Of a stretch of DNA of 64,000 nt, positions 34,152 through 62,436 are shown one piece after another. Position numbers and translations under genes: made by a program. Position 1 is the first letter of the stretch; every line of letters begins with the position of its first letter. The notes beneath the pieces were generated by a model, which was not told the origin of the DNA, made no database searches, and worked only from the letters and a program-made list of their open reading frames with translations. This stretch comes from Escherichia coli O127:H6 str. E2348/69 (GTDB lineage Bacteria; Pseudomonadota; Gammaproteobacteria; Enterobacterales; Enterobacteriaceae): NCBI RefSeq assembly GCF_000026545.1, contig NC_011601.1. One strand, 5' to 3'.

Positions 34152-34159
34152 GGTTGCCA

Positions 34160-34186
34160 AAGGGAGCTGCGGCTCCCTTTTTATTT
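34160..34186 (+). terminator. Intrinsic terminator of emrAB
   Basis: gggagctgcggctccc hairpin followed by tttttattt. Confidence 0.65.
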
Positions 34187-34408
34187 GCTCATTCTGCAAA
34201 CGGTTGTTTTATACACTCATTCGGTGTATCTTTTCGCCGCCCCAAACTCTTCCATTCACCATTAGCCGGTTCTGAGCATTCGCTCAGGTTGTTAATTCTC
34301 TTTTTCCTTCGCCCTTGCTTTCGCGGGTGATACTCACATTTTTATTTTAACCCCATAACTCGCACCCTCGCGGGCGTACATTTATTACACACAAAATAAT
34401 GGATTATT

Positions 34409-35116
34409 ATGAATACCCAACGAAAATACGGGAGAACCTGGCATTACCCCTTCTCTCCAGGCACCACCAGCGATGACCGCATTAACACCGATTACTGGCA
34501 GGATTTAAAGGCCATCACGCAATTGGTGCACACAGAAAAACTCGATGGCGAAAATAACTGCCTTAACCGCTACGGCGTGTTTGCCCGCTCCCATGCCACG
34601 CCTACGCAGTCGGCATGGACCTATAAAATTCGCCAACGCTGGCAACTGCTGAAAAACGATCTCGGCGACCTGGAGTTGTTTGGTGAAAATCTCTACGCCG
34701 TTCATTCCATTGAATACCGCGCGCTGGAACAGGACTTTTACCTGTTTGCCGTTCGCTGCCAGGATATGTGGCTGAGCTGGGAAGAGGTGCAGTTTTACGC
34801 CGCTCTGTTTGATTTCCCCTGCGTTCCCGAAATCTCCGGCCCGCAGCCGGGGAATGATGAAAAAAGCTGGCAACGTGATTTTCTGGCGCTGGCCAATGCG
34901 CGCGGCACATTCGATCCCTGGGATACGCAAACCTGGCAACCCTGTACGCTGGAAGGCATTGTCAGCCGAAATCATGATGCGTTTTCTGTCGCTGACTTTT
35001 CGCATAACGTCTTCAAGTATGTGCGCAAAAATCATGTCAAAACCACTGTGCACTGGAAACGCCACTGGCAACGGGCGCGGATGGCCCATGAGTTCGTTTA
35101 TGGAGAACAGTCATGA
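34409..35116 (+). CDS. RNA-ligase-like nucleotidyltransferase (Rnl2/DraRnl-like), 235 aa
   Basis: Covalent nucleotidyltransferase motif I KxDG(x)N ([10 protein letters not shown]), candidate motif III (LELFGENLY), motif IV (LEGIVSR) and motif V lysines (FKYVRKNH) in the canonical order; 4-bp ATGA overlap with the next gene. Confidence 0.6.
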
Positions 35117-36225
35117 TTTGGCAACTTACCGACGATAAACGCTGGTCGGCGCTACGTCAGCGTTTTAGCTGGGTTGAGGAGATGCATCACACGCCACAAG
35201 ACCCTGAGCATCATGGTGAAGGCGACGTCGGCGTACATACCGAAATGGTGCTTAACGCCCTCATTACTCTGCCAGAATTCCAGCAACTCCCCGCTCAACA
35301 GCAGGAAGTTTTATGGGCGGCGGTGTTATTGCATGATGTTGAAAAGCGCAGCACTACCGTGCAGGAAAACGGACGTATTCAGTCTCCTGGTCATGCTCGT
35401 CGGGGCGAACTGACGGCCCGACAAATTTTATGGCGCGATATCCCAACGCCGTTCGTGCTGCGCGAGCAAATTGTTGCACTGGTGCGTCTGCATGGGTTAC
35501 CGCTATGGTTACTGGAACGCCCGGAACCGGAGCGTTTGTTGCTCACGGCTGCAATGCGCATCGACACGCGTCTGCTCGCTTTGCTTGCTCGTGCCGATCT
35601 GCTTGGTCGCCAAAGCCCGGATCAGCAATCAATGCTGGAACGCATCGATCTGTTCGAGCTGTTTTGCCATGAGCAACAATGCTGGGGAAAAATGCGCCCG
35701 TTCGTTTCTGATTCCGCACGCTGGCATTACCTGACCCATGAGCAAAGTTCTCCTGATTTTGTTCCCTGGGGGGCTGAACCTTTTGAGGTTATTTTGCTGT
35801 GTGGCTTACCGGGTATGGGCAAAGATCGCTATATCAGTGAACAGTGCCAGGGAATTGACGTTATCAGCCTTGATGATATGCGGCGGCGAATCAATGCCAG
35901 CCCGGATGACAAAACCGCTACCGGGCGTATTGTGCAACAGGCAAAAGAAGAGGCGCGCGTTTTTTTACGCCAGAAAAAGCCGTTCATCTGGAATGCAACG
36001 AACATTACCCGCCAGCTGCGTAGCCAGCTCATCAGTCTGTTTACGGCTTACGGCGCACGAGTAAAAATCGTTTATCTGGAAGTGCCATGGGCGCAATGGA
36101 AGCAGCAAAATGCCAGACGCGAGTATGCAGTTCCTGAAGCGGTCGTGATGCGGATGGCCTCAAGGCTGGAAGTTCCTCAACCTGATGAAGCACATAGCGT
36201 GGAGTATCGGGTGATTGAAAGGTAA
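35113..36225 (+). CDS. HD-domain phosphohydrolase fused to a P-loop (polynucleotide-kinase-like) domain, 370 aa
   Basis: N-terminal HD motifs ([14 protein letters not shown] ... AVLLHDVEK) resembling the HD domain of CCA-adding enzymes; C-terminal Walker A-like GLPGMGKD and Walker B-like VISLDD. Confidence 0.6.
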
Positions 36226-36247
36226 ATAAATATCCTCCGGCATAGCC

Positions 36248-37797
36248 CTGTCTCTTATACACAAATCCCCACCCGGGGATTTGTGATGTCTGTCAGTCTG
36301 CTTTAGGGGGACTCTTTCCATCCGGTAGTTTCCTTCCTCCCCGGCAGCGATTTTTTGAACTTTTTCCTCACCTGTTGATCTTCTCTTATATTTCATTTTC
36401 TTCGGGTCTGTTATGGTACTTTCTGATTGTTATTCATGGGCTAACGAGCAGTTTGGACATGCCCGTCTCGGTGATCCGCGTCGTACACGACGCCTTGTGT
36501 CACTGGCCTCTTCTCTCGCTCAGCATGCAGGTCTTTCTATTGTGAAATCATCCCAGTCCACTGCTCAGGTTGAAGGTGCGTACCGCCTGATACGTAACCC
36601 GTCTGTGTCCCCGCAAGCCATTGCCGAAGCCGGATTTACCGCCACTGTAAGGGCATGTGAGGCTCATCCGCTGCTCCTCGCGCTGGAAGACACCACCACC
36701 ATTAACTTCAGTCACAGTACGGCATCTGATGACCTGGGGAATACCACCACTAACCCGAAGACGCGCGGGCTGCTGGCTCACTCTGTCCTGATGTACGCCC
36801 CCGACAGCGCCCTGCCAGTCGGTCTTATCGAACAGCAGCGCTGGAGTCGTGCCACGGACACCTACGGTGTTAAGCACCAGCGAAAAGAACGTCCCTATGA
36901 AGAAAAAGAAAGTTACCGCTGGCAGCAGGCTTCGGAGCGCATGGCCGAACGGCTGGGGGAGATACAGAAACGGGTAATCACTGTCTGTGACCGGGAAGCG
37001 GATATCTGGCATTACCTGCATTATAAAGTCAGCCACGGGCAGCGCTTCGTGGTGCGTGCAGCACAGAATCGCCGGCTGGAAGAAGCACCCGGCAAGCTCT
37101 TCGAACTGCCGGAAGTCCTGGCAACCGCGGGAAGCCACACGCTGAATGTGATGCAAAAAGGCGGGCGGGCAGCCCGCCAGGCCCGGATGTTCATCAGTTA
37201 CAGCGAAGTCAGCATAAAAAATCCCGACAACAGCGGCCAGGCGCTCCCGCTCACGTATGTCTGTTGCCGGGAGCAGGCAGAGGACGGCGCCTGCTGGCAT
37301 CTGCTGACGTCAGAAAAAGTGGCGAGTGCCGCCGATGCGCGACGTATCGTCAGCCATTACGAGCGACGCTGGCTGATAGAGGAATACCACAAGGCGTGGA
37401 AAAGTGGTGGTACATGTGTGGAATCGCTGCGAATGCAGACCCGGGATAACCTCGAGCGCATGGTGGTTATCAAGGCGTTTATCGCGGTGCGGGTGCTGGG
37501 CCTGCGGCAGGGCGGTATCAGTGAAGAAACACAAAATGACAGCTGTGAGAAAATACTGACGCCGACAGAGTGGAAACTGCTGTGGGTTAAGCTGGAAGGA
37601 AAACCGCTTCCGTCACAGATGCCGACACTGAAATGGGCCTGTCTGAAACTGGCGAAACTGGGGCGATGGCATGACAGCAAACGCACCGGTCGCCCCGGTT
37701 GGGTAGTCATGTGGGATGGCTGGTTCAGACTTCAGGATATGGTTGAGGGTTACCTGGTGATGAAGTCTCTTGATCAGGAGATCTGATCAAGAGACAG
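36248..37797 (+). mobile_element. IS4-family, IS50(Tn5)-like insertion sequence, copy 1 (1550 bp)
   Basis: Termini CTGTCTCTTATACACAAATCC and, on the other end, CTGTCTCTTGATCAGATCT (IS50 outside/inside-end-like); flanked by the 10-bp direct repeat CGGCATAGCC; internal 457-aa transposase. Confidence 0.85.
36413..37786 (+). CDS. IS50-like DDE transposase (457 aa)
   Basis: Clear homology to Tn5 Tnp (..GDPRRT.RLV....EGAYRFIRNP.., ..YERRWLIEEYHKAWKSG.., ..RLGGFxDSKRTG-like C-terminus) but not identical to Tn5. Confidence 0.85.
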   Translation: MVLSDCYSWANEQFGHARLGDPRRTRRLVSLASSLAQHAGLSIVKSSQSTAQVEGAYRLIRNPSVSPQAIAEAGFTATVRACEAHPLLLALEDTTTINFSHSTASDDLGNTTTNPKTRGLLAHSVLMYAPDSALPVGLIEQQRWSRATDTYGVKHQRKERPYEEKESYRWQQASERMAERLGEIQKRVITVCDREADIWHYLHYKVSHGQRFVVRAAQNRRLEEAPGKLFELPEVLATAGSHTLNVMQKGGRAARQARMFISYSEVSIKNPDNSGQALPLTYVCCREQAEDGACWHLLTSEKVASAADARRIVSHYERRWLIEEYHKAWKSGGTCVESLRMQTRDNLERMVVIKAFIAVRVLGLRQGGISEETQNDSCEKILTPTEWKLLWVKLEGKPLPSQMPTLKWACLKLAKLGRWHDSKRTGRPGWVVMWDGWFRLQDMVEGYLVMKSLDQEI

Positions 37798-37815
37798 CGG
37801 CATAGCCGGAGGTTT

Positions 37816-38496
37816 TTCAAATGCGCCTATAAGGCTCTCTTACCAGCCGCGCCCTAACAGGCGCACACGATCTGACATTTGCATCCAACTTCGTTACTTA
37901 CGGCCCGTAAACGGGCTGCCCGGATAGGGAATCGATAACTGCTCTCCCATTTTATCCTCTTCAAGCTGGTGCTTTATGTAATCCTGTATCTTCGCCGTGT
38001 TCTTACCCACCGTATCGACGTAATACCCTCTGCACCAGAACTCCCTGTTCCTGTACTTGAATTTCAAATCACCAAACTGCTCGTAAAGCATCAGACTGCT
38101 TTTCCCTTTCAGATATCCCATAAAGCCGGATACGCTCATTTTGGGCGGGATCTCCACAAGCATATGGATATGATCTGCACAGCATTCAGCTTCCAGAATC
38201 CGTACACTTTTCCACTCACACAGCTTTCTCAAAATACAGCCTATTGCTCTACGCTTCTCTCTGTAGAACACCTGTCTTCGGTATTTTGGCGCAAATACTA
38301 TGTGATATTTACAGTTCCATCGGGTGTGCGCTAAGCTCTTTTCGTTCCCCATTGGGACCCCCTTTTGATTTCTTGTTTGACACTTGCAGTTGCCAGACCG
38401 CAAGGTGTTTTAACAAATCAAAAGGGGTTTTAATAACTGGCTCAAAGCTGAAAGCTTTCCGGAACCCCCAGCCTAGCTGGGGGTTTTCTGTGCACA
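37816..38496 (-). mobile_element. IS200-like element (IS200/IS605 family); boundaries approximate
   Basis: Contains the IS200-type tnpA gene plus a terminal hairpin cccccagcctagctggggg (38466..38484); about 680 bp. Confidence 0.6.
37894..38403 (-). CDS. tnpA: IS200-family HUH (Y1) transposase TnpA
   Basis: 169-aa protein with the HuH motif (ADHIHMLVEIPPKMSVS) and the catalytic Tyr region (RGYYVDTVGKN) typical of IS200 TnpA. Confidence 0.85.
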   Translation of the reverse strand: MRSGNCKCQTRNQKGVPMGNEKSLAHTRWNCKYHIVFAPKYRRQVFYREKRRAIGCILRKLCEWKSVRILEAECCADHIHMLVEIPPKMSVSGFMGYLKGKSSLMLYEQFGDLKFKYRNREFWCRGYYVDTVGKNTAKIQDYIKHQLEEDKMGEQLSIPYPGSPFTGRK

Positions 38497-38532
38497 AAAA
38501 ACCGGGCGGTGGTGTCACCTGCCCGGCTTCTT
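38497..38532 (-). terminator. luxS intrinsic terminator
   Basis: Minus-strand hairpin gccgggcaggtgacaccaccgcccgg followed by ttttttg immediately 3' of the luxS stop. Confidence 0.65.
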
Positions 38533-38544
38533 TTGTTCCACTGA

Positions 38545-39060
38545 CTAAATGTGCAGTTCCTGCAACTTCTCTTTCGGCAGCGCCAGTTCTTCGTTGCTGT
38601 TGATGCGCACGTCACGTTCCAGAATGCTACGCGCAATATCCTGCGCTTCCTGCAACGAGTGCATCTGGTAAGTGCCACACTGGTAGACGTTCAGTTCCGG
38701 GATCTGATTCTGATCCTGCACTTTCAGCACGTCTTCCATTGCCGCTTTCCAGGCATCAGCGACACGCTGCTCATCTGGCGTACCAATCAGACTCATATAA
38801 AAACCGGTGCGGCAGCCCATTGGCGAGATATCGATAATCTCTACGCCATTACCGTTAAGATGGTTACGCATAAAACCAGCAAACAGGTGCTCCAGGGTAT
38901 GGATCCCTCTTTCTGGCATCACTTCTTTGTTCGGCACGCAGAAGCGCAGATCGAACACGGTGATTGCGTCGCCATGCGGGGTGTTCATTGTTTTCGCCAC
39001 CCGAACTGCAGGCGCTTCCATCCGGGTATGATCGACTGTGAAGCTATCTAACAACGGCAT
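38545..39060 (-). CDS. luxS: S-ribosylhomocysteine lyase (AI-2 synthase)
   Basis: 171-aa translation matches recalled LuxS (HTLEHLFAG metal site). Confidence 0.97.
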
Positions 39061-39128: not shown

Positions 39129-39201
39129 GAAAGACGCGCATTTGTTATCATCATCCCTGAATTCAGAGATGAAATTTTGGCCACTCACGAGTGGCCTTTT
39201 T
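39129..39201 (+). ncRNA. micA: MicA (SraD) small RNA
   Basis: gaaagacgcgcatttgttatcatcatccctgaattcagagatgaaattttggccactcacgagtggccttttt matches my recollection of the MicA sequence, including the terminator hairpin; sits in the luxS-gshA intergenic region. Confidence 0.85.
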
Positions 39202-62068: not shown

Positions 62069-62410
62069 CAAATTCTCCAGCAATAACAGTTAATGCGCCG
62101 ATACATTCACAAATCATGCCAGTTTTTAATTTACTGTTATTTAAGGAAATTAAATTCTGTAATGCAGGAAAAACGATGTCATCGACACTAGTGACGATGA
62201 CATGTGATGACAGTATTTATCGTTGCCAGTCCACATCTGGGTACTTTTTTCCGACAAGTCGTTCTGGTGGTATAAAAAAGTAATTGCCAGTAACGGGGAG
62301 GATTTAAGGGAAGCAACCGTGCCGGATACGGCGTGAACAATGACCACTTTGTCAGCTATCCATATGATTGTATTTTGAGGTTCATCGCAGATTAGCGATG
62401 AACCTTTATT

Positions 62411-62436
62411 GTGCACAGAAAACCCCCAGCTAGGCT
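62411..62436. mobile_element. IS200-like terminal hairpin fragment (left half), split by IS50-like copy 2; other half at 63987..64000
   Basis: gtgcacagaaaacccccagctaggct + [IS] + agctaggctggggg reconstitutes the same hairpin seen in the IS200-like element at 38466..38496 (reverse complement). Confidence 0.55.

Follow-up and report, generated by a model that had tools for sequence, protein, structure and literature searches.

In Escherichia coli O127:H6 strain E2348/69, the space between an RNA ligase/kinase gene pair (the cassette) and the convergent gene luxS is occupied by insertion sequences and by hairpins that resemble terminators, which raises the question of where the inserted elements begin and end and which of these hairpins belong to the host. 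The whole stretch of DNA that was analysed comprises 64,000 nucleotides and is referred to here as the window; its positions 37790-38560 match the chromosome of E. coli E2348/69 (EPEC O127:H6) with 100% identity. The gene order in RefSeq is emrB, RNA ligase family gene, ATP-binding protein gene, ISEc13 transposase, IS200C transposase, luxS and gshA. Both ISEc13 and IS200C at the luxS locus are present in the RefSeq annotation of E2348/69 and are hence already known. The arrangement very probably arose when IS200C entered the T-tract of a single terminator that luxS and the kinase gene had in common, this IS200C copy being split by ISEc13 later on. The coordinates of the features are given in Table 1.

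Table 1. Features of the cassette-luxS locus and of the second insertion nest in the window.
Feature	Position	Strand	Basis
Cassette (RNA ligase/kinase gene pair)	34409..36225	+	Pfam, RefSeq
RNA ligase family gene	34409-35116	+	PF09414 E=7.6e-28
ATP-binding/kinase gene	35113-36225	+	PF13671 E=1.1e-31; stop TAA 36223-36225
Detached right-end tip of IS200C, 21 nt TAAATATCCTCCGGCATAGCC	36227..36247	-	Identical to nt 1-21 of three intact copies elsewhere
ISEc13 target-site duplication CGGCATAGCC, 10 bp	36238-36247 + 37798-37807	.	Direct repeat, 100% identical, spacing 1560
ISEc13 (IS4 family, Tn5-like), 1550 bp	36248..37797	+	Pfam PF14706, PF01609, PF02281; RefSeq 'IS4-like element ISEc13 family transposase'
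ISEc13 transposase CDS	36413-37786	+	Co-oriented with the cassette
IS200C main body, 688 nt	37808..38495	-	Alignment with intact copies
tnpA, Y1 (HUH) transposase, 152 aa	37894-38352	-	PF01797 E=1.7e-37, WP_000526113.1
Paired arms CCCCTTTTGATTTCTT / AACAAATCAAAAGGGG, 94% complementary in intact copy	38359..38427	-	Within RF01405 match
IS200C left-end hairpin AACCCCCAGC-TAG-GCTGGGGGTT	38463..38485	.	First 23 positions of RF01405 match
Predicted bidirectional intrinsic terminator shared by luxS and (ancestrally) the cassette	38496..38534	.	Same sequence in cassette genomes without IS200C
luxS, intact	38545..39060	-	171 aa, PF02664 E=1.6e-59, WP_001130211.1
micA sRNA gene, intact	39129..39200	+	Rfam RF00078, 83.9 bits (gathering score 41)
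Second IS200C::ISEc13 nest	62377..64000	+	Sequence inspection; continues past window
Second nest: hairpin plus TTTATT	62377-62410		
Second nest: IS200C left end	62411-62436		
ISEc13 copy 2, in loop of left-end hairpin, 9-bp duplication AGCTAGGCT	62437-63986		

The insertion sequence next to luxS is IS200C, a catalogued 709-bp member of the IS200 group within the IS200/IS605 family. In RefSeq, its tnpA is named 'IS200/IS605-like element IS200C family transposase'. The PF01797 match covers residues 11-129 of the 152-aa TnpA, and the catalytic residues are the HUH motif (HIH) at residues 61-63 and Y125. No tnpB-like ORF is found in the 709-bp element, of which tnpA is the only gene. The Rfam model RF01405, describing the IS200 left end together with the tnpA 5'UTR, matches 38362-38485 on the minus strand over its full length (model positions 1-124; 146.4 bits, gathering score 56), and the structure agrees with that in PMC4513863. 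The description in the earlier note of an IS200-like element between the cassette and luxS is thereby confirmed. Two other Rfam candidates, sX6 (18.8 bits, E=0.12) and sR14 (16.7 bits, E=0.57), lie far under their gathering scores and were dismissed as chance matches on hairpin sequence.

An inverted-repeat search in an intact IS200C copy revealed no pair linking the two termini. The element has subterminal hairpins at both ends, a trait of the IS200 group, the right one being split in the window copy. For the left-end hairpin, the folding energies are -18.7 kcal/mol (minus strand) and -20.7 kcal/mol (plus strand), and the right-end hairpin (CCTCCGGC/GCCGGAGG, loop TAT/ATA) resembles it (CCCCCAGC-TAG-GCTGGGGG). 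The region of the paired arms (38359-38427) also codes for the antisense RNA art200, whose function is described in PMC4513863. The Salmonella IS200 has a length of 707-710 bp (PMC4513863), and the catalogued E. coli IS200C is alike in its size of 709 bp, its single Y1 transposase (HUH, Y125), its lack of terminal inverted repeats, its left-end terminator hairpin at approximately nts 11-33 and its weaker right-end terminator hairpin. Nothing essential differs between the two, except that in the window copy the right-end hairpin is interrupted by ISEc13. Experiments on Salmonella IS200 have shown that its left-end hairpin (nts 12-34) acts as a strong Rho-independent terminator in both directions, with ~85% of the transcripts that reach it being stopped (PMC5435999, PMC4513863).

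The boundaries of IS200C were established by aligning the window with the same locus of strain FHI_NMBU_03, which lacks ISEc13, with the OkiPb01717 copy downstream of accC and with the Ec1119 copy between hisIE and wzzB. The sequence common to the aligned copies starts at TAAATATCCTCCGGCATAGCCGGAGGTTTTTC, and all of them open with TAAATATCCTCCGGCATAGCCGGAGGTTTTTCAAATGCGCC and close with ...GGGGGTTTTCTGTGCAC. The same 709-bp unit, TAAAT...GTGCAC with AA on either side, is present at three independent loci. In the window, IS200C consists of two pieces, 36227-36247 and 37808-38495, together 709 bp. When ISEc13 and one copy of the direct repeat are taken out, the reconstructed element shows no differences from the OkiPb01717 accC copy, two from the Ec1119 copy and four from the FHI_NMBU_03 copy.

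These boundaries differ from those proposed previously. The interval 37816-38544 was rejected as the element, as it does not equal the 709 bp of the insertion sequence, takes in the luxS terminator flank (38496-38534) and omits the other end; sequence is shared with other loci to the left past 37816 (by megablast already from 37798 onward), but not to the right past 38495. Inclusion of the luxS terminator in IS200C, to which megablast matches reaching query positions 730-745 might point, was discarded as well: the flanks diverge after GTGCAC(AA) and look alike only since each of them is a different terminator made of an A-run plus a hairpin. At the luxS side, the element ends at 38495 and directly adjoins the A-run 38496-38501, which on the minus strand forms the T-run of the luxS terminator, exactly as the earlier note had described this junction. 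At the accC and his-wzzB loci, the empty sites contain AA once and the filled sites contain AA on both sides. Three empty sites were compared for the exact ends, with AA at both sides every time, and a 2-nt ambiguity stays; these alignments are compatible with a 2-bp duplication as well as with an element of 711 bp that includes the AA and was inserted after ..TT.

The hairpin at ~37798-37817 that had been regarded as the cassette terminator, with the element starting after its T-run, belongs together with that T-run to IS200C, because the copies at unrelated loci all carry CCTCCGGCATAGCCGGAGG-TTTTT. These copies identify it as the subterminal hairpin of the right end. Every intact IS200C copy has it; it is terminator-like on both strands and occurs in Brenneria izbisi as a compensatory variant, CCCCC/GGGGG (locus L026). 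In the window, its outer arm and loop are contained in the detached 21-nt tip, and the loop is the insertion point of ISEc13. The latter element has the features of the IS4 family: its DDE transposase includes a DNA-binding domain of the Tn5 type, its ends are inverted repeats (CTGTCTCTT / AAGAGACAG), and its target duplication falls within the range of 8-12 bp. The duplicated sequence CGGCATAGCC is present only once in intact IS200C. The right-end hairpin has been destroyed by ISEc13 in the E2348/69 lineage, and ISEc13 arrived after IS200C. The intact hairpin, which is found in other strains only, folds with -15.5 kcal/mol (z=-4.1). Of the split hairpin, neither half folds better than shuffled sequence: the outer one reaches -2.4 kcal/mol (z=+0.10) and the inner one (window 37790-37830), in which the terminator scan detected nothing, -7.9 kcal/mol (z=-0.28). 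With its right end broken, the IS200C copy at luxS is probably immobile, by analogy with family members whose transposases bind both subterminal hairpins and with a mini-IS200 that requires bp 566-707 as its right end (PMC4513863).

The organization of the site before the insertions can be read from cassette genomes without IS200C, in which the stop codons of the kinase gene and luxS are 48-50 bp apart and enclose a single hairpin (GGTAAAAAAACCGGGCGGTGGTGTCACCTGCCCGGCTTCTTTTG). In the four empty-site genomes compared (Nissle, O145 RM12522-C8, 21F61 and the ST131 strain CU568-3), the kinase stop is followed by just the shared hairpin (CCGGGCGG...CCCGG), and a search of these four for a native cassette terminator found none besides this hairpin. 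On this comparison, the convergent kinase gene and luxS appear to share one bidirectional terminator, and a separate cassette terminator would never have existed. The shared terminator consists of the A-run 38496-38501, a hairpin at ~38502-38527 and then CTTCTTTTG, and its folding energies are -25.2 kcal/mol (z=-4.95; minus strand) and -20.8 kcal/mol (plus strand). K-12 is without the cassette and has a different hairpin.

IS200C was inserted into the A-run that follows the kinase stop codon and precedes the shared hairpin. This run has 7 A's in the empty site (GAAAGGTAAAAAAACCGGGCGG...) and is divided into 3+6 in the filled site, and luxS retains the hairpin and six of the seven T's on the minus strand. 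The cassette and the terminator are now 2.27 kb apart; between them lie the 21-bp tip of IS200C, the 1550-bp ISEc13, the second copy of the 10-bp duplication and the 688-bp main body of IS200C. The claims that the luxS ORF, its terminator and micA are intact have therefore stood up (PF02664; a fold of -25.2 kcal/mol; RF00078), and a check of the IS200 boundary for disruption of the luxS terminator found the hairpin and 6/7 T's kept. The statement that both native terminators are preserved is right for the luxS terminator only, as the cassette one was never native and is split by ISEc13. The additional IS200 hairpin does exist, at 38463-38485, but the host site had one terminator and not two.

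The 3' end of the cassette was found in 999 of 5426 complete E. coli genomes, ten of which have IS200C at the luxS site; the intact cassette/IS200C junction without ISEc13 is present in seven genomes, and the form split by ISEc13 in three O127:H6 records. In total, IS200C occurs at roughly 11,000 places in the 5,426 E. coli genomes. The IS200C copies of E2348/69 and FHI_NMBU_03 differ at 4 of 709 positions, and their adjacent A-runs differ too (AAAAAACCGGG versus AACAAAAAATCGGG). On sequence, the E2348/69-type and FHI_NMBU_03-type insertions at the luxS site could be the result of one event or two.

In the proposed account, IS200C would move as single-stranded DNA ('peel and paste', the mechanism of IS608 and ISDra2) and insert directly 3' of a hairpin with its T-run, which would put tnpA behind the host terminator and behind the left-end terminator of the element itself. 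Read-through from luxS is thus predicted to meet two terminators ahead of tnpA. In the intact form, the right-end hairpin with its T5, located 7 nt past the kinase stop, would substitute as the cassette terminator. In E2348/69 this substitute would be lost, and cassette transcription could enter the co-oriented ISEc13, in which a terminator scan found no plus-strand terminator-like site. Plus-strand transcripts would then meet the IS200C left-end hairpin and next the shared terminator before reaching luxS. The left-end hairpin can plausibly block plus-strand read-through towards luxS; all such statements on termination and read-through in E2348/69 are predictions.

The position of IS200C next to a terminator is not specific to luxS. 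With an exact 31-mer of the left end as a probe and one genome per species, 25 loci were retrieved from 12 further Enterobacterales. The comparison covers 26 distinct sites from E. coli and the 12 other Enterobacterales; 22 of the flanks are from outside E. coli, and these are distinct as sites but not independent as element lineages, six being from Citrobacter braakii and four from Entomohabitans. At every informative locus, an A-run and then a GC-rich hairpin lie outside the IS200 left end, meaning that on the tnpA-sense strand a terminator hairpin with its T-run is found immediately 5' of the left end. Under strict criteria (an A-run next to a hairpin with a perfect stem), 24 of the 26 left-end flanks are positive, compared with 0.37% of 583,282 background positions, and the two flanks that fail have imperfect hairpins with a bulge or a long loop. 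It is always the left end, never the right, that faces the hairpin (26/26 sites). The junction is in or just past the T-run, with 5-9 A/T between the stem and the element and AA on both sides, and the empty accC and his-wzzB sites place the insertion at AA beside the hairpin. The second IS200C in the window (62411 onward) likewise follows a hairpin plus TTTATT. The two window copies are oppositely oriented on the chromosome, and no replication-strand bias such as IS608 and ISDra2 show is visible (n=2).

Related observations have been published. Sequences resembling terminators have been reported to reach their highest enrichment upstream of IS200/IS605 elements (bioRxiv 10.1101/2025.07.22.666184), and in Yersinia, IS1541 has been located between pheL and pheA, where the attenuator terminator lies (PMC3082878). 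In the literature searched, no description was found of nucleotide-level, orientation-specific homing of IS200 to terminators, nor of a target rule for ISEc13.

From these flanks, we infer that the placement of IS200C at luxS reflects the target choice of its IS clade. The alternative that IS200C inserts nearly at random and that the copies beside terminators are harmless survivors, so that placement says nothing about mechanism, is unlikely. Many insertion sequences find a harmless place between convergent genes, and IS200 was first discovered as an insertion within hisD (PMC4513863), so other landing sites are possible; yet avoidance of harm would permit both orientations and variable distances, and the sites are regular at the nucleotide level, with the left end towards the hairpin in every one. 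Target choice is favoured because survivorship by itself would not yield such uniform orientation and spacing, although it could still add to the association, as harmless intergenic insertions persist. The terminator may serve as a target when its hairpin and T-tract are exposed as single-stranded DNA, and it may mimic the right end of the element itself, where a hairpin precedes a T-rich tail with TT as its last letters.

Retention of the luxS-site copy by co-option, with the left-end terminator, an sRNA derived from the 5' part of tnpA or art200 tuning luxS/micA or genes in trans, is less probable still. IS200 transcripts do act as regulatory RNAs in Salmonella (PMC5435999; bioRxiv 10.1101/2024.06.26.600842), and the left end and 5'UTR of IS200C are fully intact at the luxS site. 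Against this, the site is occupied in only those 10 of 999 cassette-bearing genomes, and its copy is identical to copies elsewhere, with nothing locus-specific. The neat placement is also not evidence of selection for insulation, because the flank of a terminator is the usual target of this IS clade. The model in which a ~730-bp IS200-like element lies between two surviving native terminators, with the IS hairpin as a third insulator, is highly improbable: it described the luxS-side junction correctly, the luxS terminator folds strongly and bidirectional termination is documented for the IS200 left-end hairpin, but the model's 'cassette terminator' travels with IS200C to unrelated loci, is missing from cassette genomes without IS200C (a single hairpin in 48-50 bp) and no longer folds after being split by ISEc13, and its interval matches neither IS200C nor the length of IS200C.

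With target choice by the IS200 clade as the preferred reading, the behaviour of ISEc13 adds a second aspect. The window contains a second nest, in which another ISEc13 copy has entered the loop of the left-end hairpin of another IS200C; past the window end, the E2348/69 record continues with tnpA and an intact right-end hairpin of this IS200C. Ten more ISEc13 copies with an identical transposase (GCA_045344535.1) have duplications of 8-9 bp with a C-run on one side and a G-run on the other, as exemplified by the targets CTCCCCC-GCGTGAAGC-GGGGGAG and ATCCCC-CCGCTCGG-GGGGATTTTTTT. A C-run-N8-9-G-run target is present at all 12 ISEc13 sites (these ten and the two window copies) versus 0.57% of window positions. 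In metagenome contigs, three further IS200 left-end hairpins have been hit by ISEc13. To go by these targets, ISEc13 homes to the centre of palindromes with C/G stems, and the end hairpins of IS200 are such palindromes. In the literature searched, ISEc13 is named only in lists, with nothing on its target choice.

Two layers of structure-directed homing are conceivable, with the IS200 clade directed to intrinsic terminators and ISEc13 to the dyad centre of C-run/G-run palindromes, a reading that is about evenly balanced between being right and wrong. As part of the same evenly balanced reading, ISEc13 would disable IS200 copies via their end hairpins, and recombination between insertions could replace the interior of IS200, as observed at the metagenome loci L040 and L045. 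The target of IS231A, a member of the IS4 family, is GGG(N)5CCC, which lies in the ends of Tn4430. ISEc13 and IS231A are thus alike in having a short palindromic target that lies in the terminal structure of another transposon. ISEc13 shares duplications of 8-10 bp with its IS4-family relatives, the C-run-N8-9-G-run motif being its own, and the weakly palindromic 9-bp target of Tn5 is comparable to its preference for short palindromes.

The mechanistic models of the IS200/IS605 family are IS608 from Helicobacter pylori and ISDra2 from Deinococcus radiodurans, which, like IS200C, have a Y1 transposase and subterminal hairpins at both ends. They make no classical target duplication and insert beside a short specific sequence on one strand with the left end at the target, as IS200C may do too. 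Unlike IS200C, these elements have tnpB and a defined tetra- or pentanucleotide target (TTAC and TTGAT, respectively). The short sequence at the IS200C flank is just ..TT, and the conserved feature is the hairpin plus T-run, a candidate recognition signal. Bacterial class C group II introns home just downstream of intrinsic terminator hairpins, by which gene disruption and read-through are avoided. These introns are retroelements that depend on RNA and reverse transcriptase and are unrelated in sequence to IS200C, and the analogy is one of niche only.

The hairpins of IS200 and their terminator function have already been published, and the finding itself is of little consequence. It does provide a correction, in that hairpins beside IS200-type elements should not be read as host terminators, since one of them is the element's own. 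Only the target-site regularities may merit a dedicated study: the association of the IS200 left end with T-tracts and the C-run-N8-9-G-run target of ISEc13 could aid the annotation of IS boundaries and the prediction of safe or hot insertion sites.

The left end of IS200C, the 709-bp IS200-group element beside luxS, and of elements similar to it adjoins the T-run of a hairpin resembling an intrinsic terminator, always in the same orientation. This contact is observed at 24-26 of 26 distinct sites in E. coli and 12 other Enterobacterales, compared with 0.37% of background positions (flanks from L002-L004, L012-L036 and window 38496-38534 and 62377-62410). The elements are bordered by AA at both ends. 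The second IS200C copy of the window is likewise preceded by a hairpin and TTTATT. In the IS200-like element of Brenneria izbisi (L026), the right-end hairpin is CCCCCGGC-ATA-GCCGGGGG instead of the usual CCTCCGGC-ATA-GCCGGAGG, a compensatory double change by which the stem is kept.

A match to the Rfam model RF01405 (STnc490) at window 38362-38485 lies in the sense orientation of the transposase gene tnpA and includes the left-end terminator hairpin. According to PMC4513863, the RNA STnc490/art200 is 90 nt long and runs antisense to the tnpA 5'UTR. The RF01405 model may represent a strand other than that of the actual sRNA.

The RNA ligase and kinase gene pair is an indel, carried by 999 of 5426 E. 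coli genomes, that ends on the right ~9 nt past the luxS stop codon; the "luxS terminator" of cassette-bearing strains is therefore unlike that of K-12. Nissle carries a frameshifted ligase gene, whereas in O145 RM12522-C8 it is the kinase gene that is interrupted, by an internal stop.

Window 36227-38501 was compared with L002 2990-3712 and L003 1490-2198. The window copy shows 0/709 differences from the accC-locus copy of another strain, versus four differing positions from the same-locus copy of strain FHI_NMBU_03. The adjoining A-run also differs, being AAAAAACC in the window and AACAAAAAATC in FHI_NMBU_03. From these sequences, the terminator could have been hit independently more than once, or the copies could have undergone gene conversion.

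ISEc13, a 1550-bp IS4-family element, is nested in both IS200C copies of the window. The second ISEc13 (62437-63986) splits the left-end hairpin loop of its host with a 9-bp duplication, AGCTAGGCT; thus, both window ISEc13 copies lie within IS200C end hairpins. Across the ten copies of GCA_045344535.1 (L079-L088) and the two in the window (36238-37807 and 62428-63995), the duplications are 8-10 bp, with a C-run to the left and a G-run to the right. The resulting pattern, CCCY-N8-9-RGGG, is matched by 12/12 ISEc13 sites versus 0.57% of window positions, and the target often forms the apex of a GC hairpin, such as that of a terminator. No discussion of this rule was found in the literature searched.

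Features of the window and their coordinates
Feature	Window position	Remarks
RNA ligase and kinase pair, indel between emrB and luxS	34152-38544	compared with L005-L009
Second IS200C copy with nested ISEc13	62377-64000	continues in L037 1879-2570; orientation opposite to the first copy
Perfect 11-bp hairpin of ISEc13, CACAAATCCCC-ACCC-GGGGATTTGTG	36260-36285 and 62449-62474	

In GCA_045344535.1, the ISEc13 copies L085 and L086 have the duplications CTCCCCAA and CGAACCAG, and the left flank of either matches the right flank of the other. This crosswise pairing indicates that the two copies recombined and thereby produced an inversion in that genome. Two metagenome contigs (L040 and L045) seem to have lost the IS200 interior to a replacement: the IS200 left end breaks off at the hairpin loop, a short ISEc13-like piece of 929-954 bp comes next, and the final ~22 nt of the right end complete the array. 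Such a structure would be expected if ISEc13 had inserted into each of the IS200 end hairpins and the insertions had then recombined or undergone a deletion between them. ISEc13 itself carries a hairpin that lies 12 nt in from the left end and precedes the transposase gene; this hairpin may be a barrier against read-through expression.
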